This document shows, one piece after another, positions 3,779 through 63,721 of a stretch of DNA of 64,000 nucleotides; the stretch's first letter is position 1; each line of letters opens with the position of its first letter. Below the pieces are notes generated by a model, which saw nothing but the letters and a program-made list of their open reading frames with translations, was not told the DNA's origin and searched no databases. This stretch comes from Acidimicrobiia bacterium (GTDB taxonomy: Bacteria > Actinomycetota > Acidimicrobiia > Spongiisociales > ZC4RG35): contig OZ244856.1 in the NCBI GenBank assembly GCA_965220995.1, positions 450,928 through 514,927 of the forward strand, given 5' to 3'. Position numbers and translations under genes: made by a program.

Positions 3779-5143
3779 TCAGTTCACCAATTGTCCGGCC
3801 AGGCGCCGGTGGCGATCCAAGTGGGGCGCCAACTCGAATCCGATCGGTTGACCGTCCACCACCACGCTCCGGCCTTGGACGATCAAGCGATCCACCTGAT
3901 GCGGTCCGGTTAGCACCAACGCAGCCACCGGGTCGTGGGCTCCTGCCATGGATATCCCGTCGGTGCGAAAGCAGGCGAGATCGGCGGCTTTGCCTGTTTC
4001 GAGGGAACCGATGTCCTCTCTGCCCAGCACCTCTGCGCCGCCCAGGGTGGCCACTCTCAGAGCGGCCCGGGCGGTCAGCATGGGCTCATCCGACTGCTCC
4101 AAAGCTCTGGCCAATCGGGCGACCAGCAGCGCCTGGCGAGCTTCGGCCAGCATGTGGGAACTGTCGTTGGAGGCCGATCCGTCCACTCCCAGGCCCACGG
4201 GCACTCCATTCTTGAGAAACCGGGTCAGCGGCGCCGCACCCGATGCCAGCCGCATATTGGAAGTGGGACAGTGAGCGGCGCCGGTGCGGGTGGAAGCCAT
4301 GGTGCGGATGTCCTGTTCGGAGACATGCACGGCGTGAGCGAACCACACATCGTCACCCAACCAGTCCACCGATTCGGCATAGTCCACCGGCTTGCGACCG
4401 AAGAGTTCCTGGCAATACTCCTCCTCATCCAGGGTTTCGGCCAGGTGGGTATGAAGCCGAACCCCCAGGGAACGACCCAGGGCAGCCGACTGCCGCATCA
4501 GGTCGGGACTCACAGTGAAGGGTGAGCAGGGAGCAATCACTATGCGGGTCATGGCGCCCGGGGAAGGATCGTGATACCGGGACACGACGCGCTCGCAGTC
4601 GGCCAGGATTGCGTCTTCGCTCTCAACCCACTCGTCGGGGGGCAATCCACCCTGGGACCGCCCTACACTCATCGACCCCCGGGAGATGTGAAACCTGATG
4701 CCCACCTGCCGGGCCGCCTGTGCCTGGTCGTCCAAGGTCGAGCCGTCGGGCCAAAAGTAATGGTGATCGAATGCGGTTGTACAACCCGACAGGGCCAGTT
4801 CCGCAAGGGCCGTGACAGTGGATGCCCGCACGTGCTCGGGCGTCACACGGGACCACACCGGGTACAGAGTCACCAGCCAATCGAACAACTCCGAGTCTTG
4901 GGCCATGGTGCGGGTGAGGGTCTGGAAGAAGTGATGATGAGTGTTGACCAGACCCGGTATCACCACCTGTCCCTGACAGTCAATCACCTCGTCAGCCGTG
5001 TCCGGCAGTTCAGAGGTGGGACCCACCTGCTCGATCCACCCGCCCCGGGCATACAGTCCCCCGTCGGCTATCTCGGCGCCGGCGTCATCCATAGTGACCA
5101 ACCGGTCTGCGTTGCGGAGCAAGAGAGTCTGGGGCCGGCGCAT
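3779..5143 (-). CDS. Amidohydrolase-family deaminase (8-oxoguanine deaminase / SsnA / cytosine-deaminase-like).
   Basis: Metal-dependent hydrolase signature GLVNTHHHFFQ, with later HTHLAE and VGLGVDGSASND motifs. Start set at the internal Met (MRRPQTLLLRNA), which fits the family N-terminus; the track ORF extends to 5182. Confidence 0.7.
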   Translation of the reverse strand: MRRPQTLLLRNADRLVTMDDAGAEIADGGLYARGGWIEQVGPTSELPDTADEVIDCQGQVVIPGLVNTHHHFFQTLTRTMAQDSELFDWLVTLYPVWSRVTPEHVRASTVTALAELALSGCTTAFDHHYFWPDGSTLDDQAQAARQVGIRFHISRGSMSVGRSQGGLPPDEWVESEDAILADCERVVSRYHDPSPGAMTRIVIAPCSPFTVSPDLMRQSAALGRSLGVRLHTHLAETLDEEEYCQELFGRKPVDYAESVDWLGDDVWFAHAVHVSEQDIRTMASTRTGAAHCPTSNMRLASGAAPLTRFLKNGVPVGLGVDGSASNDSSHMLAEARQALLVARLARALEQSDEPMLTARAALRVATLGGAEVLGREDIGSLETGKAADLACFRTDGISMAGAHDPVAALVLTGPHQVDRLIVQGRSVVVDGQPIGFELAPHLDRHRRLAGQLVN

Positions 5144-5413
5144 GGTTGGGGAGTCTAATTTTTGCCGGAGAACCAAAGGCAAAGCAGTGAAAAGAGAGGC
5201 TAACCTGTGAAAACCGTGCTGGGTTTTCCCCCCAATGGGTTCCCTCCCCCGCCACCTCCTAACCGGGATCAGGGCGCGTTTGGGCTAGGCCTGGAATAGG
5301 CGCCTTTGCAGTTTATGATCCCCGGTGCGGTCCGAACGACGTCGGAGCGGGCCGCCCTGGTATTTCAGCTACCTACCAGTGTGCAACAGGGGTAGGACAG
5401 AATTCAACCCCGG

Positions 5414-6499
5414 TCAGCCGGGATTTTTCGCGGGCCGGGAAAGTTTCAGGGGCGACAGAAAACGATTGCGAGGCGCAGCCACCAGATCAACCGGCTCGGC
5501 CACCTTCTCCACGGTCACCCGATCGGCCCCGATCATCCCGCCGATGCGATGAGCCTGCGTTTCGACAGCATCCCAGCGACGGGATCGCCAAGCCGAAAAG
5601 GGCGCCACCTTAATCTCCAGCCGGCGGTCGGAGGCACCCAGATCCCAGACTCCCACCACTCTTCCACCGTCCAGCACCACCGAAGTTGCGTTGCCGAAGC
5701 GGTCGTAGGCAAAGGGATGGTGAGCGCTGTCAAGCAGGTGGTCCCGTTCCCGGTGGGCCACCATCAGGACATCCCAGACCGGCAGAAGGCGCAGACCCTG
5801 CTGCAGGCGCATCGAGCCCTCCCGGCCCCAATCCAGGCCATCTGAAGCGGCCCGGGTTTCGGCCACCGTCCACCCGGCCCACCAGCGCAGATCCGGCAAG
5901 GTAGCAGGTCCGTAGGCTGCCAGGTAGGACTCCGCCAATCGTCGCCGGGCTTCGACCTCATCAATCGCGTGGGGATCAATGTCCGGCAGCCAATCGGCCC
6001 AGCGGGCGTAGGTCAAACGGTTGGATCGCCACCCGCCGGTGGTGGCGGCCCGGACTATGCGGTACTCGGATGCCATCATGGCCAACAAGGCCCCGAAATA
6101 ACGTCCGATTCTGCGGTCCGGATCCACTCTCGCCCGCAACCCGGCGGCGGACCGCGGGCCATGGGCCAAAGATTCTTCCACCAAGGGGGCCCACCTTGAG
6201 TAGTCGTCCGCCAGGCGACGGCGATAGGCGGAACTCCAACTCTGGTTCTGACGGCGGGTGGCCGCCAGCACCACTTCCAGCAATCCCCGGGGCAAAGCAT
6301 GCACCGATCCCCGCATGGCTCGCACCCTGACCAGCGACCGGTCTGCATCCAGGGCGTGGTCGAGATAGACCATCCGGTACCCGTTCATTCTGGCCAGAGC
6401 GGAGAGGTGACAGGTCGGCGCCACGCCATAGATACCCACCGAACGACCCACCACCCTCAAGAGATCCGCCGTGCCCAATTTCAAACTGTCCACTGTCAT
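5414..6499 (-). CDS. Winged-helix DNA-binding domain protein of the YcaQ/AlkZ DNA-glycosylase-like family (DUF1006).
   Basis: 361 aa. The N-terminal region (VRAMRGSVHALPRGLL and surrounding) resembles the HTH_42/AlkZ-like fold. Family assignment is from sequence-pattern memory only. Confidence 0.5.
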   Translation of the reverse strand: MTVDSLKLGTADLLRVVGRSVGIYGVAPTCHLSALARMNGYRMVYLDHALDADRSLVRVRAMRGSVHALPRGLLEVVLAATRRQNQSWSSAYRRRLADDYSRWAPLVEESLAHGPRSAAGLRARVDPDRRIGRYFGALLAMMASEYRIVRAATTGGWRSNRLTYARWADWLPDIDPHAIDEVEARRRLAESYLAAYGPATLPDLRWWAGWTVAETRAASDGLDWGREGSMRLQQGLRLLPVWDVLMVAHRERDHLLDSAHHPFAYDRFGNATSVVLDGGRVVGVWDLGASDRRLEIKVAPFSAWRSRRWDAVETQAHRIGGMIGADRVTVEKVAEPVDLVAAPRNRFLSPLKLSRPAKNPG

Positions 6500-8109: not shown

Positions 8110-9978
8110 TCAGGCCGTCAGACAGAGACGATACTCGGTGTCACGGCGGGCAACCGGTCGGTTGCGGTCCCGGGCGGTTCGCTCGAAGTCGGAAGGATCC
8201 ATCTCCTGCCCATGGGCGGCCCCCGCCGATCGGGTGATGATCTCTCCCATCAGGGTGCCCCCCAGGTCATTGCACCCCGCATCCAGAAGACGCCCGGCCC
8301 CCTCCAGCCCCAACTTCACCCATGACGCCTGGATATTGGGCACCAGCCCGTCCAGGGCGATCCGGCCCACCGCGTGGATCAGCACCACTTCATCCCAGGT
8401 GGGACCGGGTCGCGCCTTGCCGTTCAACCAGATGGGGGCCCCCATGTGGACAAACGGAAGCGGCACCAACTCGGTGAAGCCGCCGGTCTGCCTTTGAATC
8501 TGTCGGATCACCTCCAGGTGCCGGGCCCAGGAACGATGATGATCTATGTGCCCGAACATGATGGTGGCGGTGGACCTCAGACCCAGTTCGTGGGCGATGA
8601 GCATGACCCTCGCCCATTGGGAGGTGCGGATCTTGTCGGGGCAGAGAAACCGCCGGACATCGTCGTCCAGGATCTCGGCGGCGGTTCCGGGAAGGGTACC
8701 GAGGCCGGCGTCCTTGAGACGGACCAAGAACTCCCTGACAGACACACCCGCAGTTTCGGCGCCCTGCCAGACCTCCAGCGGGGTGAACCCGTGAATGTGC
8801 ATGTCGGGCAACTCCGCCTTGATCGCTTCCGTTACCGAAACATAGAAATCTCCGGTGAACTCGGGATGGATGCCTCCCTGCAGGGTCACCTCGGTGGCGC
8901 CCCGGTCCCAGGCCTCCCGGGACTTCTGCACGATGTCGGCAATCGACATCAGGTAGGGGTCCCCTCGCAGATTGAGGCTGCGGGGACCCTTGGAAAAGGC
9001 GCAGAACCCACACCGGAAGTAACACATGTTGGTGTAGTTGATGTTGCGGTTGATCACATAGGTGACCAGATCACCCACCACCCGTTGGCGCAACTGGTCG
9101 GCCGCCCACGCCACCGCCTCCACCTGATCGCCCCTTGCTCCGAACAGGGCCTCGGTTTCATCCACCGTGGGGGCGGCGCCGTCCAGGGAACGTTCCAGGA
9201 TGGGCCGCAGCTGCCCGGCGCCTTCCAATTCGGGCGGCCCGTCCGACCCCACCCACAGGGAATCAGGCCACTGGGCCGAGAAACGGCGGGGAGGAACCGG
9301 CGCCTCCTCGGCCCGGCCGGGCGCCCAACCGTAACGAGGGCGGGCCGCTGCACCGGCGTCCACCTGCTGGAGCCACGCCCGGAAGGCGCGGCGCGACAGC
9401 GTTGCGCGCACCTGGTCTATTTCCAAACCGGGCGGAAGGGCCGTTCGCTCCACCAGCGTCATCGGCGCCAACCGCCGGCGTAACTCGCCGATGCGTCCGG
9501 CATCCCAGTCTCTCAGCAACAAATCGCAAGCCCCTGCCCACACCGCTTCGGCGGCCTGGTCGACATCGTCCACAAACACCGAGACCCTCGCCTCCACCGA
9601 GGGCAGTCCGCACAGAGCCGCCGCGGCCTCCACCTCGCTTCGGGTGGTTCTCAGAAAAGACGCCTCGCTTCTGGCCAGGGCGTCCAGCACCAGATCCTCG
9701 TTGCCGGTATGCACCACCGTGATAAGCCAGCCCGGCAACCCGGCCTTCGCCAATTCCAACGCCCCGGAGGGATCGGCGATCCGAGGCGCCTCCGACACAT
9801 CCGCCTCACGGGCGGCGATCAAGACCCCGGCCCCGTGGGCGGCCCGCAGGTCGTGGGGGGTGGGAGCATCCATCTCCAAGGTGGTGGTGCCCTCCCGAAG
9901 ACGCGCATCCGCCACAGCCTCGGTGGCCTTCTCCGCCGGGCGGGTGCGCAAGAAAGTGATCATCGAAGCCCTGCCCAA
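8110..9978 (-). CDS. cofH: FO synthase subunit CofH (radical SAM) with a roughly 250-aa N-terminal extension of unknown function.
   Basis: CxxxCxxC radical-SAM motif CYFRCGFCAF at about aa 319-326, followed by a CofH/FbiC C-terminal-half-like sequence. GC3 is high across the N-terminal 250 aa, which suggests it is translated. Confidence 0.7.
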   Translation of the reverse strand: MGRASMITFLRTRPAEKATEAVADARLREGTTTLEMDAPTPHDLRAAHGAGVLIAAREADVSEAPRIADPSGALELAKAGLPGWLITVVHTGNEDLVLDALARSEASFLRTTRSEVEAAAALCGLPSVEARVSVFVDDVDQAAEAVWAGACDLLLRDWDAGRIGELRRRLAPMTLVERTALPPGLEIDQVRATLSRRAFRAWLQQVDAGAAARPRYGWAPGRAEEAPVPPRRFSAQWPDSLWVGSDGPPELEGAGQLRPILERSLDGAAPTVDETEALFGARGDQVEAVAWAADQLRQRVVGDLVTYVINRNINYTNMCYFRCGFCAFSKGPRSLNLRGDPYLMSIADIVQKSREAWDRGATEVTLQGGIHPEFTGDFYVSVTEAIKAELPDMHIHGFTPLEVWQGAETAGVSVREFLVRLKDAGLGTLPGTAAEILDDDVRRFLCPDKIRTSQWARVMLIAHELGLRSTATIMFGHIDHHRSWARHLEVIRQIQRQTGGFTELVPLPFVHMGAPIWLNGKARPGPTWDEVVLIHAVGRIALDGLVPNIQASWVKLGLEGAGRLLDAGCNDLGGTLMGEIITRSAGAAHGQEMDPSDFERTARDRNRPVARRDTEYRLCLTA

Positions 9979-10141
9979 CGAAGGCTCCCGGCGCCGGCCC
10001 TTTTCGCCGGCGACCTACCGGACCCGGGAGTCTTCACCGGGGAAACGGAGCCGGCTGACCCCGCTGCGGGATGCTGGCAGACAGACTTGCCGGACTGAAT
10101 GGACATTAAAAACCTCAGGCTACCGGTTGCGGACCGGCCCA

Positions 10142-11302
10142 TCAAACGGTCACCGCCACCGGGGCCGACCTTGATTCGGCCTGGGGCGCCCGGGCGTACC
10201 CCTGCGAGTCGACCGCTCCCAACACCTTGGGCAGCAGATCGGGATCTATCCAGCGCCGGGTCTGATATGACGGATAGACCGGCAGCCGGGGGAGAAGTCG
10301 AAATCCGGCGCTCTCGGTGCGGCGGCGCAGTTCCTCGAGATGAGGCCAGGGCGCCTCCGGATTCACCCAGTCGATCGTGAGCGGAGAAACCCCACCCCAA
10401 TCATTGATTCCCGCTCGAAGGTAAACCTCATAACTCTCGGTGAGGTTGGGAGGGACCTGAATGTTCATCTCGGGGCCCATTATCCACCGGGCCAGGGCCA
10501 CCACCCGCATGAACCAGGACGGAATCGGCTCGGCGTCGAGCCGCATGGGAGTGTTGTATTTGGCTCGAAAATTCTGGACTATGACTTCCTGGATTTGGCC
10601 ACCGCTGCGGGCCATCTCGGCCAGAGCCGCCAAAGAATCCACTATTTCTCCCGAGTTTTCCCCGATCCCCACCAGGATGCCGGTGGTGAAGGGAATCCGC
10701 AACCGCCCGGCGTCCTCTATAACCTGCACCCGCACCGACGGGACCTTGTCGGGGCAGTTGAAGTGCGGCATGCCGGGCTCCAAAAGACGGGGAGAGATGT
10801 TTTCGAGCATCAAACCCATCGACGGATTGGAAGGGCGAAGCTCCCGCAACTGGGACAGGGTCATGACACCCGGGTTGGCATGGGGAAACAGGGCCGTCTC
10901 CCGGTTGACCATCTCGGTCATCCGCCGGGTGTACTCCAAGGTCGTGTCACATTCCTGCTCGTCCAGGAACCTCCGCGCCGCCGGCCAGCGCTCCTCGGGC
11001 CGATCGCCCAGGGTGAACAGCGCCTCGGTGCAGTGGTGAGCCTCCCCGGCCCGGGCAACGGCCAGCACCTGTTCGGGAGGCATGAACATCCCGCCTCCGC
11101 CCGGCGGCTGAGCGAATGTGCAGTAGGTGCAGGAGTCACGGCACAAGGTGGTGAGAGGCACGAACACCTTGCGGCTGTAGGTGATGGTTCTGCCCTTGCC
11201 CTCATCCCGCAGTCGGCCGGCCTCGGCAAACAACGGTTCGGCCGACCGCCCCCCCTCCAAATAGGCAATCGCCAGGTCCCGATCAAACGCCGGATGGGTC
11301 AT
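10142..11302 (-). CDS. cofG: FO synthase subunit CofG (7,8-didemethyl-8-hydroxy-5-deazariboflavin synthase, radical SAM).
   Basis: CRDSCTYCTF radical-SAM motif near the N-terminus. 386 aa, similar to CofG and the FbiC N-terminal half. It sits 163 nt upstream of cofH on the same strand in a different frame. Confidence 0.75.
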   Translation of the reverse strand: MTHPAFDRDLAIAYLEGGRSAEPLFAEAGRLRDEGKGRTITYSRKVFVPLTTLCRDSCTYCTFAQPPGGGGMFMPPEQVLAVARAGEAHHCTEALFTLGDRPEERWPAARRFLDEQECDTTLEYTRRMTEMVNRETALFPHANPGVMTLSQLRELRPSNPSMGLMLENISPRLLEPGMPHFNCPDKVPSVRVQVIEDAGRLRIPFTTGILVGIGENSGEIVDSLAALAEMARSGGQIQEVIVQNFRAKYNTPMRLDAEPIPSWFMRVVALARWIMGPEMNIQVPPNLTESYEVYLRAGINDWGGVSPLTIDWVNPEAPWPHLEELRRRTESAGFRLLPRLPVYPSYQTRRWIDPDLLPKVLGAVDSQGYARAPQAESRSAPVAVTV

Positions 11303-23672: not shown

Positions 23673-23846
23673 GTGCAGCCCGGTTCCTGTTTCCCCGATC
23701 TGTTCCTGTCCCATTCCCTGAATTAAGGAAAGCGGGTGTGACAGGTCAAGCACTCACCGGAGTTTCTCGGTGGAACGCATACCGGCGGCCACCGGCGCAA
23801 TCAGCCTTCTCCCCCCGACAGGGATACCGGATAGGGGCCGGGCGGC

Positions 23847-24113
23847 AATCTGTGAAATCAGACACTATGTCGCGAAACCGCCCCCGAAATTCCTGTCCCG
23901 AGGGCCCGCCCCCGCCACCACCTTTCCTGGGGTCGGGACGCGAATCCACCATACAGAACGAGGATTTCGTATTCCCAACAATATGGTCCCTGCGGCCGGT
24001 CTGGACGACGTCGGAACAGACCGGGAGGTGCTTGACTCCTATCACTATGTGACACCCGGGAGACAAAGTCAAGCCAAGAGCCACCCTGTTTTTCGCGACC
24101 CTCCCCAATCACC
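23847..24113. repeat. Copy A of a conserved ~268-nt intergenic structured element; candidate ncRNA or MITE-like repeat.
   Basis: About 90% identical to 63256..63524 in the same orientation. Shared ends: aatctgtgaaatcagacactat at the left and ccctccccaat at the right. Terminal inverted repeat GTCGCGAAA / TTTCGCGAC. Internal hairpin CCGGTCTG...CAGACCGG is identical in both copies. A second hairpin keeps its stem but has a different loop sequence in the two copies. Confidence 0.6.
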
Positions 24114-24168
24114 TATCCACGCAGTCTCTAAGAAACCCCGGCATGTCGGTTATCCGCTTGGCTCCCGG

Positions 24169-24801
24169 TCAAATACCGCCCAGGCGGCCCGGCGGCCAGA
24201 TCCGCAACACGGCTTTGCCCACCACATTGTCCCCGGGCACAACCCCGAACACCCGGCTGTCGGATGATCTTCCGCGATTGTCGCCCATGACGAAAAGATG
24301 ATCCTCCTCCACCACCACTATCAGGTTTTCCTCCGATGTGAAGGAGCCCAGATAAGGCTCGTTCAGCAGTTCTCCGTTCAGCCACACCTCATTGCCCCGG
24401 ATCTCGATTCGATCGCCTCCCGTGGCGATCACTCGCTTGATCAGGTCTGCCTCCGAGATGTCATACCACCCGAACGCTTCCCGAACCTCATGCCACACCA
24501 CCTGCACAAGATTGCGATCCGGTTCAACCCGTCCGGGGGGAGAGAACACCACCACATCCCCCCGACCGGGGTCGCCGAACAGATAGCTCACCTTGGAGAC
24601 CATCACTCGGTCTCCCACCTGCAAAGTGGGATGCATGGATTGTGACGGGATCTCAAAAGGCTGGATGAGAAGGGCTTTGATCAGCACGGCCAGGGCCACC
24701 GCCCCCAACAGCAGCACCGCCATCTCCACCACGGCCGAACGAATGGAGCGACCCCGGTGGCCCGAAGGCTCTGGAGAACTGTTCCCGGGCAGGTCGGTCA
24801 C
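24169..24801 (-). CDS. lepB: Signal peptidase I.
   Basis: N-terminal TM. Catalytic Ser box PSQSMHPTL, and GDNRGRSSDSR near the C-terminus. Confidence 0.85.
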   Translation of the reverse strand: MTDLPGNSSPEPSGHRGRSIRSAVVEMAVLLLGAVALAVLIKALLIQPFEIPSQSMHPTLQVGDRVMVSKVSYLFGDPGRGDVVVFSPPGRVEPDRNLVQVVWHEVREAFGWYDISEADLIKRVIATGGDRIEIRGNEVWLNGELLNEPYLGSFTSEENLIVVVEEDHLFVMGDNRGRSSDSRVFGVVPGDNVVGKAVLRIWPPGRLGGI

Positions 24802-32297: not shown

Positions 32298-33269
32298 TCA
32301 GGCGGTTTTCCCAAACATTGAAAGCTGCTCCGGCCGGGAGGAATCACCTTCTGAGAGTCCTTTGCCATCCTGGTGCGGGGGATGCAGCATTGCCTCCAGT
32401 TCGTCGACGGATCGGATGGGTACCGCGCCCCGCTTTTCCAGCGTCTCATTTCCCGGGCCTTCTCCCGCTCCCCTCCAGACTCCGACCCGCAGACCTCCTT
32501 TGAGAGCCTCGGTCGCCCCCGACCATGTGCCTCCCTTGCCCGTCTCGCTGGCCACTGCCACCGTGAGGTTGGACAAGGCGTAGATAATCTTGTTCCGTCC
32601 CATGGCGTTCCATACCCGGAAAGGGGCCTTGGGACTGTAAGGAGTACACATGACGGCGCGCTCCTCGTGGATTGCTCTGCGCACATCGGGGCTTTGCAAC
32701 CCACGCATAAACGACCCCGCCAGGACGCCGATGATGGTTCCTCCTGCCTGTATGGCGGCGTTCATAGCCAGTTGATCCACCCCACGCGCTCCGCCGGAGA
32801 CCACCGGATAGCCGAGTTCCACTGCCTTCCCCGCGATGCCCCTGGCCGCTTCCGCCCCCTCGGGGGAGACATCACGGCTGCCCACCACCCCGATACCGGG
32901 CTGATCAAGCAATCCAAAAGCTCCGGCGGCGTAAATCAGGGCGGGGGCCTTGGGTCCGAGTCGACAAACCAGACGCTGGGGAAAATGGTCATCAAAATGG
33001 GTAACTGTCCGAATACCGGAATGTTCGAGTTGCTCCAATTCGAAAGCCATGACTCTCACCCGATCCAGCAACACCCATACCCGGTCCGCCAGCGCATCGG
33101 ACAATCCGTAATCCCTCACCATCTCTTTCCGGTCCTGCCCCAACAACGCGCCAGGCCGCGGGCAGGTCTCTAGAAGTCGCCAGTACTCCCGCGCCGAGAG
33201 AGGCCGTACCTCCTTGCCATGCATCCGGCTCACCAAGAGCACCGTGGCAGCCGAGTCGTCATTCCTCAC
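32298..33269 (-). CDS. DprA/Smf-like (SLOG/DNA_processg_A fold) protein; candidate PsyrA-like antitoxin partner.
   Basis: GIGVVGSRDVSPEGAEAARGIAGKAVELGYPVVSGGARGVDQLAMNAAIQAGGTIIGVLAG, the DprA Rossmann signature. Overlaps the upstream RecQ-PRTase gene by 4 nt. Confidence 0.6.
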   Translation of the reverse strand: MRNDDSAATVLLVSRMHGKEVRPLSAREYWRLLETCPRPGALLGQDRKEMVRDYGLSDALADRVWVLLDRVRVMAFELEQLEHSGIRTVTHFDDHFPQRLVCRLGPKAPALIYAAGAFGLLDQPGIGVVGSRDVSPEGAEAARGIAGKAVELGYPVVSGGARGVDQLAMNAAIQAGGTIIGVLAGSFMRGLQSPDVRRAIHEERAVMCTPYSPKAPFRVWNAMGRNKIIYALSNLTVAVASETGKGGTWSGATEALKGGLRVGVWRGAGEGPGNETLEKRGAVPIRSVDELEAMLHPPHQDGKGLSEGDSSRPEQLSMFGKTA

Positions 33270-35329
33270 CTGATTGATCTCCCGCTGGCATCAGCCAAGG
33301 CAAAGGGGTAAACCGAACCTGATCCGGCCAGAAGCAACTCACTACCCACGGCTGTCAGGGTCCACCTGGAATCAACGACATCATCCACGAGCAACACCGG
33401 ACCTCTGGGAACCGCCCCCACGATCCTAAATGCGTCTCGGACGTTCCGATGTTGTTGATGGCTGTTTTGCATAGTTTTCTGTGGCTCCGTGTCACGGACC
33501 TTTTCAACCACATTCTTATAAGGAACTCTCAGCAATGCCGCCAAACGAGCCGCAAAGTCCTCAACGAGGTCTGGATTTCTCAACGATGGAACAGAGGCAG
33601 CCCAGGCCGGAAAAGGCTGAGGCGCCCACCGATTTCTGATCAGATCGGCGGCGGCCGCCACCAATCGCTCATCAAAGCGCCCTTCCGATTGCTTGCCCGA
33701 ACGGACGAGAGTCCCCCAACCACCATCCTTCCAGACCGCCAGGGCCCGTCCTGGTTCGACGAGTTGGTCCTTGGCGATTCTCTTCCGGTTCGGCCATTGT
33801 TTGCGTGGTTCGATGTTCAGATCGACCCCTCGAAGGAACTCGATAACCCTTTGGACAACGGCGGGATCAAGACGAATTGCAAGGCTCAAACCAGTGCAGT
33901 TATCACAGATGCCACACGGATTTGCTATCAGGTCGTCGAGGTAGGAGCCCAAGAGTTGCATACGACAGGCGCCGGTTCGTATGTACTCGTTCATCTGCTT
34001 TTGCTCGACCCTCCGCTGAGCAGTAACCAACTCAACCCGGCGCCGATCGAATTTCCACCCTTTCAAAGTTCTTCGCCAGACAGAGCCTTCCTGTTCAACC
34101 GCCCCCTCAACCTCGAGATTCTTCAGCAGCTTCTCGAGTTGACCCCAACCGATATTCAACGACTGGAACAACTCGTCCCGAGACACCCCTTCCGTCTTCT
34201 CCTCCAGCAAGGCCACCACCTGCTCGGCTTGTGGTGCGGCCGGGAAGGCCCCCTGGATGAAGTAATCCTGAATGTCGGTGTCTTCTCCACCGCGCAACAG
34301 TATGCCCCAAGACTCGTTCAGTGAACGGCCCGCCCGGCCCACTTGTTGGTAATACGAGATCGGCGAACCGGGTGACTGGTAGTGAATTACAAAGGAGAGA
34401 TCAGGTTTGTCGAAACCCATACCGAGGGCTGAGGTTGCAACCACCACCTTCACCTGATTGGACAGGAGAGCCTGTTCAATCCCAACCCGGTCTTCAGAGT
34501 GCAAACGACCCCAGTATGAAACCGCCGAGATTCCAACTGATGACAGCCATTCCCCTACCCGCTGTGCATCTCTTACGGTGAGGCAATAGATCACCCCTGT
34601 TCCATCCAATCTTGACAGTTGGTCGGCCAGCCATGCCAGACGCTCCGCCTGTGATGGGATCTCGAGGACATGCAACCGTAGTCCGCGACGCGCCAAGGTT
34701 CCCCTGACAGTGGATAACCCTGAACCCAGTTGGTCAACGATGTCTCCTACGACGCGGTCATTGGCCGTCGCCGTGCAACACAGAATCGGGACACCGGGAA
34801 GGAGCCTCAGAACGCGGGTGATCCTCCGGTAGTCAGGCCGGAAATCGTGGCCCCAGTCGGAAATGCAATGTGCTTCGTCAATCACCAGCAGCCCGCTTCT
34901 CCGCAGGATGACCGGCAGGAGTTCGCCCCGGAACTTGCGATTGGCCAGCCGCTCCGGCGATATCAATAACAGGTCAACCGCATCGGCATATAGTTTCTCT
35001 TCCACCTCCGCCCACTGTGCCGGGTTAGAACTGTTGATAGTCTCAGCCCTGACACCCATTCGCTCTGCAGCTTCAATCTGATTGCGCATCAGGGCCAACA
35101 GAGGGGAAATCAGGAGGGTAGGCCCCGCACCTCGCGTCCGGAGCATTCGGGTTGCAATAAAGTACACCGCGCTTTTGCCCCACCCGGTTCGCTGAACCAG
35201 GAGAACCCGTCGGAGTTCTGCAACCAGTCCGCGGATCGCGTCGAGTTGACCCTCCCGGAAGTCAGTTGTCGGATCCCCGGTCAGCTTGCGCAGAGAATCC
35301 AGAGCTTCCGAAGCAAACTTGTCACTCAT
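33266..35329 (-). CDS. RecQ-family DNA helicase fused to a C-terminal ComF/GntX-type phosphoribosyltransferase domain; candidate PsyrT-like toxin/defense helicase.
   Basis: Helicase motifs: Walker A TGWGKS; motif II DEAHCISDWGHDFRPDY. RecQ Zn-finger CRMQ...CGICDNC. C-terminal PRTase signature RNVRDAFRIVGAVPRGPVLLVDDVVDSRWTLTAVGSEL. Local GC is clearly lower (about 48-55%) than the surrounding DNA. Confidence 0.65.
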   Translation of the reverse strand: MSDKFASEALDSLRKLTGDPTTDFREGQLDAIRGLVAELRRVLLVQRTGWGKSAVYFIATRMLRTRGAGPTLLISPLLALMRNQIEAAERMGVRAETINSSNPAQWAEVEEKLYADAVDLLLISPERLANRKFRGELLPVILRRSGLLVIDEAHCISDWGHDFRPDYRRITRVLRLLPGVPILCCTATANDRVVGDIVDQLGSGLSTVRGTLARRGLRLHVLEIPSQAERLAWLADQLSRLDGTGVIYCLTVRDAQRVGEWLSSVGISAVSYWGRLHSEDRVGIEQALLSNQVKVVVATSALGMGFDKPDLSFVIHYQSPGSPISYYQQVGRAGRSLNESWGILLRGGEDTDIQDYFIQGAFPAAPQAEQVVALLEEKTEGVSRDELFQSLNIGWGQLEKLLKNLEVEGAVEQEGSVWRRTLKGWKFDRRRVELVTAQRRVEQKQMNEYIRTGACRMQLLGSYLDDLIANPCGICDNCTGLSLAIRLDPAVVQRVIEFLRGVDLNIEPRKQWPNRKRIAKDQLVEPGRALAVWKDGGWGTLVRSGKQSEGRFDERLVAAAADLIRNRWAPQPFPAWAASVPSLRNPDLVEDFAARLAALLRVPYKNVVEKVRDTEPQKTMQNSHQQHRNVRDAFRIVGAVPRGPVLLVDDVVDSRWTLTAVGSELLLAGSGSVYPFALADASGRSIR

Positions 35330-35503
35330 TGATTGGGGACCCCCGGATAGCTGATTCTCAGTTGCTGTGTATAGGCAAGCCTATTTGAAGGGTGTGACAT
35401 CGAGCCCGGACCCGATAAGCACCCAGCACCTCCCAAGCACACCTGTATTACAAACGCGGCTTGCCGTCGGGGCTGCCGCAGCGCAGGGCCCGGGGCGCAA
35501 CTC

Positions 35504-44327: not shown

Positions 44328-45869
44328 GTGGCAGGCCTCCGGGCCGCTGGGACCCGGCGTTTGTTCGGTGTGCCGGGAGGAGGCCCAAACCTGCTGAAGG
44401 TGGGCGCCGCCGCCGAGCAGGGCATTCCCTTTGTTCTCTGCCACAGCGAGACGGCCGCGTGCATCGCCGCCTCGACTTACGGGCTGTTGACCGACACGGT
44501 GGGGACGGCGGTGGTCACCCGGGGGCCGGGCGTGGCGTCGGCCGTGAACGGAGTTGCCCAGGCCACCTTGGACAAGCAGCCCCTGGTGCTGGTGGGAGAC
44601 ACCGTTTCGCAGGCCGACCGCACCTGGGTGGGACACCAGAAATTCGACCAACCGGCAGTGATGCAGCCGGTCACCAAATGGAGCGGCACGGTGGGCCGGG
44701 ACGGGACCGCCCGAGCGGCGGAAGCGGCCGGGCGGCTGGCCACGGCCCATCCCCAGGGCGGGGTACACATCGACATGGACAGCAATATCCCAGGGGACAT
44801 GCCTCCCGATGCCCCGGCTGTGACCGATGGCGGGGCCGTTCCGGAGGCGGTGCGGAAAATGGTGGCCCGATCCTCCTTTCCGCTGTTGATCCTGGGAACC
44901 GGGGCGCTTGGATGGATCGGGGAGGTGAGGAAGGTGGTGGCCGCCGCCGGATGCCCGGTTCTCACCACCTATCACGCCAAGGGCCTGATCGACGAGACCA
45001 CACCCCTTTTCGGAGGGCTGTTCACCAGTTCCTCCTTGGAGGCGCCGCTGCTGCGAGCCGCAGATCTGGTTTTGGCGGTGGGAGTCGATCCCGTGGAGCC
45101 GCTTCCCCGGCCTTTCCGATACGAGGCGCCGGTGGTGGAGATCAACCCCTGGCCCCAACCGCTCCGGTTTTTCCCCGGGCGGCGCCGGGTTGAGGGGCCG
45201 GTGGGTCCGATCCTCGGGTCTCTGGCCGCCGATCTGGCCGAACATCGATGGGACCCCGACGCCGGCCGAACGGCATGGCAGGCTGCCCGGCGGTCGCTGT
45301 GGGCCGACGGACCGGGTTTCACTCCCCACCAGGTGGTGCAGGAGGTGGCGAAATGGAGCGCCCGGCAAGAGGATGCCACGGTGACGCTGGATGCCGGCGC
45401 CCACTTTCTGGTGGCCATGCCTTACCTTCCGGCCACCCTGCCCCGCCGGATCCTGATCTCCAACGGTCTCTCCACCATGGGATACGCCCTCCCCGCCGCC
45501 CTGGGCGCCGCCCTGGCTCGTCCGGAGACACCGACCGTCTGCCTGACCGGCGACGGTGGGTTGAGCATGGTCCTGGCCGAGTTGGAGACGGTGGCCCGGG
45601 CCGGGGCGGACGTGACTGTGGTGGTGTTCAACGACGGGGCCCTGACCCTCATAGAACTCAAGCAACTGGCCGGCCAGGGGGGACCGCAGGCGGTGCGTTA
45701 TCAACCCATCGACTACGCCCGGGTGGCTCGATCCTGCGGAATGCCGGGGGTGATGGCCGAAAACCAATCGCAACTGGCGGCCGCCCTGCGCGGACCTCGA
45801 CCCCGCCTGATCGACGCCCGCATAGATCCAACCGCCTACCGAACCGTGATCGAAGCCGCCCGGGGATGA
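44328..45869 (+). CDS. Thiamine-pyrophosphate-dependent enzyme (acetolactate-synthase-like family).
   Basis: N-terminal pyrimidine-binding domain (LFGVPGGGPNLL...FVLCHSETAACIAAST), a middle domain, and a C-terminal TPP motif GDGGLSM...N. GTG start. Confidence 0.7.
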   Translation: MAGLRAAGTRRLFGVPGGGPNLLKVGAAAEQGIPFVLCHSETAACIAASTYGLLTDTVGTAVVTRGPGVASAVNGVAQATLDKQPLVLVGDTVSQADRTWVGHQKFDQPAVMQPVTKWSGTVGRDGTARAAEAAGRLATAHPQGGVHIDMDSNIPGDMPPDAPAVTDGGAVPEAVRKMVARSSFPLLILGTGALGWIGEVRKVVAAAGCPVLTTYHAKGLIDETTPLFGGLFTSSSLEAPLLRAADLVLAVGVDPVEPLPRPFRYEAPVVEINPWPQPLRFFPGRRRVEGPVGPILGSLAADLAEHRWDPDAGRTAWQAARRSLWADGPGFTPHQVVQEVAKWSARQEDATVTLDAGAHFLVAMPYLPATLPRRILISNGLSTMGYALPAALGAALARPETPTVCLTGDGGLSMVLAELETVARAGADVTVVVFNDGALTLIELKQLAGQGGPQAVRYQPIDYARVARSCGMPGVMAENQSQLAAALRGPRPRLIDARIDPTAYRTVIEAARG

Positions 45870-46205
45870 GGTTGGCCGAAACTCGCGAAAAATCCGCCGG
45901 TCCGTGGGTTGACTTCTGTCACACACCTGTTACATAGTGGTTGGATCAAACACCCAGGACGGTCCGCTCCGGCGTCGAGTGGACCGTCCGAAGGTCAGAC
46001 AACTCAGGAAGTCGCTGGTTCCGGCTGGACAAAGCCTTCCTGATCAACGGCAAGGTGGATGGTGGGGGAGGGGCCCGAAAGGGCGGGAAAGCTGGGAGTC
46101 AGTTTTCGCGAGATAGTGTGTGATTTCGCGGATGTTGGCCGTGACGGGACGCCACCGTCCCCGATGGGTAATCTCCCCTGCAAACCAATGAGAGGAGGTA
46201 TCTCC

Positions 46206-61617: not shown

Positions 61618-63237
61618 ATGAGCAAAACCCTTCACTCCGATCTTGAGATTTATGACACGACCCTGCGTGACGGCGCCCAGCAGGAAGGCATTTCTCTCAC
61701 GGTTTCCGACAAACTGAGGATTGCCTCGCTGCTCGACTCGCTGGGCGTCCACTACATCGAAGGCGGATGGCCGGGCGCCCTTCCCAAGGACAACGAGTTC
61801 TTCGCCCGCGCCAAGACGGAACTTTCCCTCTCCAACAGCCGACTGACCGCTTTCGGGTCGACCAGGCGGCCGTCCCGGAGGGTTGACACCGATCCCCAGT
61901 TGCGCTACCTGCTGCAAGCCCAGACGGAGGTGATCTGCATCGTCGGAAAATCCTGGGATTATCACGTTCGAGAAGCACTGCGCTGTGACCTCGACGAGGG
62001 GATCCGCATGGCGGGGGAGTCGGTGGAGTTTCTGAAATCGCACAACCGGCGGGTGTTCTTCGACGCGGAGCACTTCTTTGACGGGTACCGGGCCAATCCC
62101 GAATACGCCCGGGCGGTGATCACCGCCGCCTGGGAAGCGGGCGCCGAGCGACTGGTGCTGTGTGACACCAACGGGGGCGCCCTGCCGTCGGAGATCAACC
62201 GCGTCATCGCCGAACTCGGTGAGACCCTGCCCGCCGACGCGCTGGGTGTGCATTTCCACAACGACGCCGGGTGCGCGGTCGCTTCCTCGTTGGCTGCGGT
62301 GGCGCAGGGGGTAAGACAGGTTCAGGGATGCATCAACGGCTACGGCGAGCGGACCGGTAACGCCGACCTCTCCACGGTCATACCCGATCTGGTTTTGAAA
62401 ATGGGCGTCCCGGTGGTGGACACCCGGCGCCTTTCCCGGATTTCTTCGGTTTCCCATCACATAGCCGAAGTGGTCAACATCACGCTCGACCCTCACCGGC
62501 CTTATGTGGGGGCGTCGGCCTTCACCCATAAAGCGGGTCTCCACACCTCCGCTTTGGCCCGCCGACCCGACGCCTACGAGCACGCCCGCCCGGAGTTGGT
62601 GGGCAACAGCACCCGAATGGTCATATCCGAACAAGCCGGAAGAGCCGCCGTGATCCGAAGAGCCGCCGCCCTCGGCCTGGACGTGGACCAGGACGCCGCC
62701 GCCTCGGTGCTGGAACAGGTGAAGGAAATGGAGCATCGCGGCTACCAGTTCGAAGCGGCGGACGGATCGTTCGAGTTACTGGTGAGACGGGTCCTCGGAC
62801 GGCGCCGGGACCTGTTTTCGGCCGCAGGCTTTTCGGTCTCCATTCACCGCCAAAAAGGTCAGGACGAGATTCGGTCTCAGGCCGAGGTGGAGGTGAAGGT
62901 GGGAGATGAGATTCACCGAACCACCGGAGCGGGAGTGGGGCCGGTCCACGCCCTGGACCAGGCCCTCAGGCAGGCTCTTGTGTCGGCCTTTCCGCAACTT
63001 GAGCGCCTGCGGCTGGTGGACTACCGGGTCCGGGTCCTTGATTCCTCCGACGGCACCAGCGCCACGGTGCGGGTCTTGATCGAGACCACCGACGGCGAAG
63101 AATCCTGGGGAACGGTGGGAGTTCACCCCAACATCATCGAAGCCTCCTGGGAAGCCCTGTCCGACGGCCTGACGGTGGGCCTGCTCCGGCTGGGAGATTC
63201 CAAAGAAGCCTCCGGTCCTCAGACGGACAGCGGGTAG
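61618..63237 (+). CDS. cimA: (R)-citramalate synthase (LeuA-family, CimA type).
   Basis: N-terminus IYDTTLRDGAQQEGISLTVSDKLRIASLLDSLGVHYIEGGWPGALPKDNEFF is typical of the citramalate-synthase/LeuA-related clade. 539 aa with a C-terminal regulatory domain. The Ile-codon attenuator upstream fits a role in isoleucine biosynthesis. Confidence 0.65.
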   Translation: MSKTLHSDLEIYDTTLRDGAQQEGISLTVSDKLRIASLLDSLGVHYIEGGWPGALPKDNEFFARAKTELSLSNSRLTAFGSTRRPSRRVDTDPQLRYLLQAQTEVICIVGKSWDYHVREALRCDLDEGIRMAGESVEFLKSHNRRVFFDAEHFFDGYRANPEYARAVITAAWEAGAERLVLCDTNGGALPSEINRVIAELGETLPADALGVHFHNDAGCAVASSLAAVAQGVRQVQGCINGYGERTGNADLSTVIPDLVLKMGVPVVDTRRLSRISSVSHHIAEVVNITLDPHRPYVGASAFTHKAGLHTSALARRPDAYEHARPELVGNSTRMVISEQAGRAAVIRRAAALGLDVDQDAAASVLEQVKEMEHRGYQFEAADGSFELLVRRVLGRRRDLFSAAGFSVSIHRQKGQDEIRSQAEVEVKVGDEIHRTTGAGVGPVHALDQALRQALVSAFPQLERLRLVDYRVRVLDSSDGTSATVRVLIETTDGEESWGTVGVHPNIIEASWEALSDGLTVGLLRLGDSKEASGPQTDSG

Positions 63238-63255
63238 GGGCCGTACGGCCAAGAG

Positions 63256-63524
63256 AATCTGTGAAATCAGACACTATCTCGCGAAAACACCCCTAAAATT
63301 CCTGTCCCGAGGGCCCTTCCCCCGCCACCACCTTTCCTGGGTCGGGACGCGAAATCCGTCATATATTGAACGGGATTTCGCTTTCCCGAGAGTATGGTCC
63401 CTGCGGCCGGTCTGGACGACGTCGGAACAGACCGGGAGGTGCTTGACACCTATCACTATGTGACACCACGGAGACAAAGTCAACCCATCGGCCACCCTGT
63501 TTTTCGCGACCCTCCCCAATAACC
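63256..63524. repeat. Copy B of the conserved ~268-nt structured element; candidate ncRNA or MITE-like repeat.
   Basis: Same orientation and ends as copy A. Perfect hairpin GCGAAATCCG...CGGGATTTCGC. Lies between the convergent 3' ends of cimA and an ABC ATPase gene. Confidence 0.6.
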
Positions 63525-63721
63525 CACCCTCGGCAGGCTTTGGCTGAGATGCAGGTTGAGGATGGGCGCCAACAGCCCGCTCAACCCGGGAAGACGGAAT
63601 GCATCACCATTCCCATAGCTGCGGCACTCTTGCCTTTCCCGTTACCGGTGTTGACTACCACTATGGAGGGTGCCCCGCTTGACATCACGACGGCGGGGAT
63701 CTTCTGTACGGGGCGCCTTGC

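Follow-up and report, generated by a model that had tools for sequence, protein, structure and literature searches.

The Correia repeat-enclosed elements of Neisseria are intergenic, bounded by inverted repeats and flanked by a TA-containing duplication; they measure 100–155 bp, occur in hundreds of copies, carry promoters inside, at their ends, and are co-transcribed with their neighbours as hairpin RNAs. A 3-bp TAA or TNA duplication is characteristic of Tourist-like MITEs and of PIF/Harbinger and IS5-family transposases, the Tourist and Harbinger elements being eukaryotic. REP units are GTAG-headed palindromes of 20–40 nt mobilised by RAYT, and their inverted doublets of ~100 nt are known as REPINs. 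Elements derived from IS200/IS605 have subterminal hairpins and no terminal inverted repeats, recognise a fixed left target of 4–5 nt, and produce no duplication. The MIRUs of mycobacteria are actinobacterial intergenic repeats located in operons and composed of 46–101-bp tandem units without inverted ends. MITEs originating from DDE insertion sequences have also been described in bacteria, and include the IS5-family-related BrickBuilt/MITE239 of Porphyromonas gingivalis and ATR of Neisseria (PMC4596501). The repeat described here can probably be considered a new family of MITE-type non-autonomous transposons, targeting TAA, in an uncultured Acidimicrobiia-like actinobacterium.

The initial annotation of the 64-kb window (the whole stretch of DNA that was analysed) reported two copies of ~268 nt, about 90% identical to each other, and proposed that they represent either a novel sRNA family or a MITE-like repeat. 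Both copies, A and B, are indeed present at the sites indicated and in the same orientation, but the repeat is larger (~310–320 bp) and more numerous than was then assumed. The similarity between A and B reaches ~28 nt further to the left and ~15–20 nt further to the right, and the full elements comprise 310 bp in A (23819..24128, plus strand; delimited by alignments, nhmmer E = 7e-97) and 321 bp in B (63220..63540, plus strand; BLAST, alignments, and nhmmer). The boundaries of A were set by its register with copy F, the ends of which are fixed by empty sites in related genomes. The identity of 90% holds for a gap-free block of 160 nt and falls to 83% in a block of 98 nt; by BLAST it is 86% over 310 nt with E = 4e-100, which excludes chance. 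Two more copies are located in the window, bringing their number there to four: copy C at ~45868-46163 on the minus strand (BLAST; nhmmer E = 6.5e-61), which represents a diverged subfamily, and copy E at ~5160-5445 on the plus strand (nhmmer E = 4e-53), the most diverged of all. Another three copies were found at other loci, fetched via their predicted ORFs: D (L007, 9972-10278), F (L009, 9972-10287, 316 bp), and G (L010, ~9850-10165). Copies A, B, D, F, and G, referred to below as A-type, show 83–91% mutual identity, whereas C is 57–61% and E ~52% identical to them; C and E share 60%.

Nine ORF clusters were returned by a protein-database search with the ORF translated from copy A, and every one of them originates from either of two assemblies belonging to a single species. 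When C and E are added, the ~2.7-Mb genome contains at least 11 distinct copies, four of which were inferred from ORFs on other contigs (P0002, P0007, P0008, and P0009). The genome is metagenome-assembled, and a 99.4%-identical strain is present in the ENA assembly ERZ25072299 (L001). Two short-read contigs from this organism (L002 and L003) end 83 nt past the lepB stop codon, within the right end of copy A, as is expected at a repeat. Outside this species the family was not encountered. When 1.84 billion representative proteins were searched exhaustively by HMMER with an ORF of the family (P0001), no copy in other organisms came to light, only the ORFs of the family itself and two low-complexity proteins. 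The exact-pattern scan of GTDB genomes retrieved nothing related, only three chance hairpin matches in unrelated phyla, and such scans of JGI metagenomes (two patterns) and of IMG/VR (one pattern) gave zero matches; plasmids and phages, searched by BLASTN, contained no match either. A 1765-aa concatenated six-frame query, covering other frames and subfamilies, yielded nothing significant among the best 8000 candidates, a result that is probably uninformative.

Mobility is indicated by copy F, inserted in the sense orientation between recO and uppS. In three relatives (L014, L011, and L012), with RecO proteins 89%, 87%, and 83% identical, respectively, recO and uppS overlap by 4 nt, and the junctions read ...CGGTGACCGG, ...TCGTGACCGG, and ...CGATGACCGG. 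The RecO relatives are labelled Acidimicrobiia or Actinomycetia, and no copy of the repeat is present in the ~20 kb of their DNA searched. The occupied site at F has the structure GTGTCGAT[TAA]CAGGGATAGCGGGTAGG...CCTACCCACTCAGGCTC[TAA]GTGACCGG, in short GAT[TAA]CAGGG...GGCTC[TAA]GTGACC. The RecO protein encoded there has 243 aa and ends in ...RPLVSINRDSG*, its final residues and the TAG stop codon being provided by the element. In-silico removal of 316 bp together with one TAA gives ...GTG TCG ATT AAG TGA CCGG..., that is, a RecO of 239 aa, as in the relatives, with the TGA overlapping the GTG of uppS; the reconstructed junction is gap-free and colinear with that of the closest relative (...GTG GCT CTT CGG TGA CCGG). 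This comparison fixes the ends of the element, CAGGGATAGCGGGTAGG... on the left and ...CCTACCCACTCAGGCTC on the right, and limits the duplication to at most 3 bp (TAA, or TA).

As to the target-site duplication itself, F is flanked by TAA on both sides and G by TAA on the left and TCA on the right, and no duplication is seen at A, B, and D. The TAA directly following the right end of A (24129..24131, plus strand) occupies the same position as the duplicated TAA of F, but the left-flank triplet of A is CGA, so that no duplication exists there. Copy D is bracketed by a 19-bp direct repeat instead of a short duplication. Both the direct repeat at D and the finding of a perfect flanking duplication in only one of the five A-type copies, F, count against classification of the family among MITEs.

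The termini of the element are inverted with respect to each other. In F the core of the terminal inverted repeat, AGCGGGTAGGTG / CACCTACCCACT, comprises 12 nt, is 92% complementary, and lies 7–8 nt from each end. The corresponding left core of A, ACCGGATAGGGG (consensus AGCGGGTAGGGG; 23826..23837, plus strand), pairs with the right core CACCTATCCACG at 24110..24121 (plus strand), identified by alignment and by comparison with the core of F; A carries GGATAGG at both ends, while F has GGGTAGG at both. These terminal repeats are imperfect, with ~11 of 17 terminal positions matching, and are not recognisable in C and E. Further inside is located a second, inner inverted repeat, TCGCGAAAA / TTTTCGCGA, which is perfect over 9 nt, includes the self-complementary hexamer TCGCGA, and is better conserved than the termini. 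This is the pair that was initially described as a terminal helix, GTCGCGAAA/TTTCGCGAC: it is present in A, with the left arm at 23869..23877 and the right arm at 24091..24099 (both plus strand), but it lies inside the true termini, and in B its outer G-C pair is replaced by a C.C mismatch, so that A and B have in common only TCGCGAAA(A)/(T)TTTCGCGA. The left arm is kept in all seven distinct copies. Related motifs, CGCGAAA(T/A)C, occur again at the left end as well as in each arm of the internal hairpin H2, and copy C has inverted repeats of its own, CTCGCGAAAA/TTTTCGCGAG and GGCCGAAACTCGCGAAA/TTTCGCGGATGTTGGCC, the latter being the C version of the inner repeat.

Within the left terminal core the sequence GTAG is followed by a GC-rich palindrome (GTAGGGGCCGTACGGCC in B), as in the heads of REP units, whereas the right end contains GTAG without a palindrome. 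This feature, along with the conservation of hairpins as structures, could point to the relic of a hairpin-dependent single-strand transposon, either REP/REPIN-like and mobilised via RAYT or of the IS200/IS605 type and mobilised via Y1 (HUH). Such an element would insert 3' of a TTAA/TAA motif with no true duplication: the sequence ...CTCTAA could belong to its right end and the left TAA be the target, which leads to the same empty-site reconstruction, and the right-flank triplets (TAA, TAA, TAT, TCA, and TGG) are in fact slightly better kept than the left ones. The inverted relationship between the two ends of the repeat, which the ends of IS200/IS605 do not show, nonetheless makes that origin improbable. 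In addition, TAA is found on the left flank of only two of the five A-type copies, the element is at least three times longer than REPINs, no match to HEARO or another IS605-associated RNA was obtained with Rfam, and neither a Y1 nor a RAYT gene was seen in the ~196 kb read.

Copy A lies between lepB and yraN, as was initially proposed and as the Pfam domains of its neighbours confirm (Peptidase_S26 for lepB, UPF0102 for yraN), and is placed antisense within their operon (lepB 24169-24801, minus strand; yraN 23331-23714/23753, minus strand). Copy B separates a cimA/leuA-like gene on the plus strand (HMGL-like/LeuA_dimer) from a convergent ABC ATPase gene on the minus strand (ABC_tran), and D and G likewise reside between convergent genes. 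Copy C is antisense, between a TPP-enzyme gene, whose stop codon (45867-45869) falls within the element end, and a PNPOx-like gene starting at 46203. Copy E, also antisense, is located between an AlkZ-like gene (5414-6499, minus strand) and an amidohydrolase gene (3779-5143, minus strand), and carries the last ~10 codons and the stop codon of the former. At B the left terminal repeat supplies the TAG stop codon of the cimA/leuA-like gene (63235..63237, plus strand; tail ...TDSG*); this gene and recO at F end on the same element TAG, both with ...DSG* tails, and at G the stop codon of a DUF169 gene abuts the element. Five of the seven copies (B, C, E, F, and G) thus contain or adjoin the stop codon of a neighbour, and all seven lie within ~70 nt of a gene 3' end. 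Their orientation with respect to the genes is mixed. A cis-regulatory leader or riboswitch was considered and is ruled out by this mixed orientation and by the unrelated neighbours (yraN, the PNPOx-like gene, the amidohydrolase gene, uppS, and convergent gene ends).

The window has a GC content of 63.7%, and TAA/TTA occurs in it 3.6 times per kb. In a genome of 64% GC, TAA sites would be rare and clustered at stop codons and gene ends, and an element with a preference for TAA would thus be steered to the 3' ends of genes. According to the proposed mechanism, a transposase supplied in trans by another genomic locus, putatively of the DDE type and acting by cut-and-paste, would bind the ends of the element and insert it at TAA (or TA), duplicating the target. 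The TAG and TGA triplets that read inward in the inverted repeats would terminate an interrupted frame after a few extra codons, so that the insertion would be tolerated. A 3-bp duplication of TAA (TNA) resembles that of IS5-family and Harbinger-like elements, a resemblance that is treated here as a lead only.

No autonomous element with matching ends was detected in the ~196 kb read of the ~2.7-Mb genome, which is a further point against the MITE assignment. The window contains no transposase genes. The only transposase gene seen, of the ISL3 type (in L008), was rejected as a parent since it shows no similarity to the element. A strain-specific segment of 2.2 kb at 33190-35375 was likewise discarded as a parent IS; it contains a DEAD/Helicase_C gene and no transposase.

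Several copies have been mistaken for genes. Gene callers predict an ORF, MVPAAGLDDVGTDREVLD..., in the same frame in the five A-type copies and another four, and a stretch of 42 codons is free of indels among the A-type copies, as would be expected of a small protein-coding gene. The ORF in F begins 14 nt downstream of the recO stop codon and extends to the TGA overlapping the uppS start. Yet this frame is open in the A-type copies only; its upstream, N-terminal half lies in different frames in different copies, and in C and E all frames are interrupted by stops. Variable sites are spread over the three codon positions as 7/5/5, most changes being non-synonymous. No Pfam domain is recorded for the ORFs inside the copies, and the 1.84 billion representative proteins contain no homologue from outside the species. 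That the element encodes a small protein is accordingly a most improbable explanation, and the predicted ORFs within it, e.g., the 165-aa ORF at 23770-24267, are annotation artefacts.

The interior of the element is composed of several blocks conserved to different degrees. From the left, the C-rich block CCCGCCCCCGCCACCACCTTTCC (23905..23927, plus strand), with a Shine–Dalgarno-like GGAAAGGTGGTGG on the other strand, is by its conservation profile among the best-conserved blocks in all subfamilies. Hairpin H2, GCGAATCC ... GGATTTCG (23940..23969, plus strand), has a hypervariable loop; in A and B it takes the form GCGAA(A)TCC(G)/(C)GGATTTCG(C) with differing loops, in agreement with the initial description of a second hairpin that keeps its stem, and in C it is swapped for a hairpin of unrelated sequence, CAGGAAG...CTTCCTG. 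Hairpin H3, CCGGTCTG-13 nt-CAGACCGG, is located at 23996..24024 in A and at 63407..63435 in B (both plus strand); it is identical in these two, as was noticed at the outset, and invariant in all A-type copies. One of its stem pairs, U-A in the A-type copies, is changed to C-G in C and E, and is thus compensated, and its outer pair is C-G in the A-type copies, A-U in C, and G-C in E. H3 is followed by the inverted repeat H4, GCTTGACT-29 nt-AGTCAAGC, which encloses CACTATGTGACA (24030..24074, plus strand). The blocks common to the A-type copies, C, and E are the left arm of the inner repeat, CCC.CCCCCGCCACC, H3, CACTATGT...GACA.AAGTCAA, and the right arm.

In the alignment of A-type copies a single column varies among 45 consecutive ones around H3, versus ~14 expected, variation being greatest in the H2 loop and at the termini. 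Across the subfamilies, at 52–61% identity, the termini are again the least conserved and the internal blocks the most. MITEs usually show the opposite distribution; the one seen here speaks against a plain MITE and suggests a function beyond transposition.

A promoter-like site is also situated in the interior, on the strand opposite to that considered initially. In A it is TTGACT-17 nt-CATAGT (24044..24072, minus strand), the sole site of this kind found, with 0.2 expected, and it reads leftwards through the element, towards yraN. Its counterparts are TTGACT-17-CATAGT in B (63455..63483, minus strand) and TTGACT-18-CATAGT in C (45909..45938, plus strand), the latter pointing at the PNPOx-like gene. 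A, B, and C retain both hexamers despite a diverged spacer of 17 or 18 nt. The site aims at the downstream gene in A, C, and E; in B, D, and G it is directed at a convergent gene's 3' end, and in F it runs against the operon. No terminator-like site was found in A, B, or C. The conserved TTGACT-N17-CATAGT may feed transcription into yraN at A and into the PNPOx-like gene at C.

The interior was originally taken to behave as a functional RNA on the grounds that a stem is conserved while its loop is free to vary. The part of this claim concerning the hairpins stands: they are maintained, as the compensation in H3 and the replacement of H2 in C demonstrate. Covariation is modest and shows no strand preference, and the argument for an RNA as it was stated does not follow. 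With the RNAalifold consensus of an eight-sequence alignment, which comprises only three effective lineages and thus has little power, 89.9% of cells are paired on the strand as given, with 15 pairs changed on both sides and 3–8 with slid partners; on the opposite strand 92.4% of cells are paired, with 12 pairs changed on both sides and 2–6 with slid partners. The asymmetry of G.U versus A.C pairs, used to call the strand, is mixed, G.U pairs falling on one strand in some helices and on the other strand in others. On both strands, A and B have minimum free energies within the range of dinucleotide-shuffled sequences (z = −0.25 to −1.65). Covariance models of Rfam 15 gave no match at the gathering score in the whole window; at E <= 10 there was none for A, F, and E, and four chance-level matches were obtained for C, so the view that the element corresponds to no known riboswitch or housekeeping RNA is upheld. 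A constraint acting at the level of RNA or single-stranded DNA inside a mobile element is possible, and the compensatory changes in the hairpins count against a simple MITE.

These observations bear on another explanation, in which the TCGCGAAAA repeat delimits a core of ~230 nt that would itself be a functional module used by the host or by the element, and transposition merely spreads it. The module would consist of the inner TCGCGAAAA repeat, the C-rich, Shine–Dalgarno-like block in a hairpin loop, the covarying H3, and the internal sigma-70-like promoter; it could give rise to a small RNA transcribed from TTGACT-N17-CATAGT and starting just upstream of H3, or act as a portable promoter/operator, that is, a mobile sRNA or regulatory cassette selected in three subfamilies that are 52–61% identical. 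Internal blocks far better conserved than the termini at this level of divergence are consistent with such a module, as are the pairing of H3 preserved by compensatory substitutions (U-A to C-G, with C-G, A-U, or G-C as the outer pair), the replacement of H2 by a hairpin of different sequence in C, the promoter-like hexamers retained in A, B, and C, and their direction towards the downstream gene in A, C, and E. The same site, though, faces the wrong way for this purpose in B, D, G, and F, is followed by no terminator-like site, and lies in an element with ordinary folding z-scores and with covariation that is equal on both strands and drawn from three effective lineages only. A functional core of this kind is therefore regarded as unlikely.

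The assignment to MITE-type transposons agrees best with the dispersed copies, the inverted ends, the insertion in either orientation, and the empty site of F with its TAA duplication. The element is 310–321 bp long, has no conserved coding capacity, and is represented by one pair of occupied and empty sites; of the two initial proposals it is thus the MITE-like repeat, with at least 11 copies, that is favoured over the novel sRNA family. If this assignment is right, a conspicuous structured intergenic element is explained as selfish mobile DNA and not as a new riboswitch or sRNA, and gene ends become the landing sites of a TAA-seeking element when the genome is rich in GC. Its insertions rewrite the last codons of the RecO, CimA-like, TPP-enzyme, and AlkZ-like proteins, and copy F splits the translationally coupled recO–uppS pair. 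Should the interior prove to be transcribed and functional, it would represent a regulatory RNA or promoter spread by a MITE in a poorly studied class of actinobacteria.

Compared with the systems described at the beginning, the family resembles the REP units and REPINs in the GTAG of the terminal core, the palindrome on the left, the location just after stop codons, and the pairing of inverted units, but it differs from them in its length of ~315 bp, its complex interior, and a right end in which GTAG lacks the palindrome, and it cannot be assigned to this group. Nor does it belong to the IS200/IS605-derived palindrome elements, from which it is distinguished by the inverted-repeat ends and by a left TAA in two of five A-type copies. 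It is similar to the HEARO/omega-RNA of IS200/IS605 (Rfam RF02033 and relatives) in being ~300 nt long, non-coding, multi-copy, and mobile, with conserved hairpins; unlike these, it has inverted ends, no IscB/TnpB-type ORF, and no Rfam match in four copies at E <= 10. With the MIRUs it shares a position between the genes of an operon and, in F, a reading frame touching the stop and start codons of the neighbours, but it is a single unit of ~315 bp with inverted ends. Inverted-repeat bounds are common to it and the Correia elements, from which it differs in size (~315 bp), in copy number (at least 11), and in the internal position of the promoter-like site. The 3-bp TAA duplication at F and the AT-rich insertion triplet are as in Tourist, Harbinger, and IS5 elements; but the ~196 kb read yielded neither an IS5-type transposase nor terminal repeats that match. 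From BrickBuilt/MITE239 and ATR the family is set apart by a lack of sequence similarity, by an interior more conserved than the termini, and by a clean duplication in one copy only. Like BrickBuilt/MITE239 and ATR, which are present in tens of copies per genome and have short flanking duplications at only some copies (PMC4596501), the element is small (50–1000 bp), non-coding, and intergenic, and has terminal inverted repeats. Like them, it is called as spurious hypothetical genes by annotation pipelines, and the promoter activity that BrickBuilt/MITE239 and ATR can carry may have its parallel in the predicted promoter-like site of the family described here (PMC4596501).

The copies of the repeat are 97-98% identical between the two strains, against 99.4% for the surrounding genome, as seen when copy A (window 23819-24128) is compared with L001 11060-11373, a locus of the 99.4%-identical strain, and copy B (window 63220-63540) with the locus L008 (9832-10153). 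Since the patches changed between the strains look like other copies of the repeat, the sequences suggest gene conversion among the copies.

The repeat is traversed by long open reading frames on either strand: 165 aa at window 23770-24267 (+), 120 aa at 23746-24108 (-), and 81 aa at 63274-63519 (-); the first is present in a public protein collection (entry P0012). All three are annotation artefacts, the repeat being non-coding and rich in GC. Copy F, located between recO and uppS on L009, is likewise spanned by an ORF, of 97 aa (10001-10294), which starts 14 nt past the new stop of recO and terminates at the old recO TGA overlapping the uppS GTG; compared with copy A it carries two 1-nt indels that compensate each other and keep it open. 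Speculatively, this frame may preserve translational coupling to uppS.

Copy D is bordered on both sides by a 19-bp direct repeat, TGTCAGTGGCAG(A/T)TGAGCT (L007 9948-9966 and 10279-10297), much longer than the 3-bp duplication of copy F. Two copies, E and G, lie at the 3' ends of different AlkZ-like DNA glycosylase genes (window 5414-6499 and L010 8616-9797, respectively), in opposite relative orientations to them; this association is likely a coincidence. About 6-10 kb past the right end of the window, an ISL3-family transposase gene without similarity to the repeat family adjoins genes for a DNA cytosine methylase and a UvrD-like helicase (L008 16539-20405).

The 99.4%-identical ENA strain lacks a 2.2-kb segment (window 33190-35375) that encodes a 687-aa DEAD/Helicase_C (RecQ-like) protein; at that position it has 88 bp of unrelated sequence. 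Within this strain-specific helicase gene the terminal-repeat core, AGCGGGTAGGGG, has an exact 12-nt match (window 34552-34563, -), part of a 20-nt stretch matching the left end of copy B at 90%; with a BLAST E of 0.07 it is probably a chance match. The segment adjoins a second DprA/SLOG-like gene (window 32298-33269), and the strain-variable pair of helicase and SLOG genes possibly constitutes a defence or recombination module.
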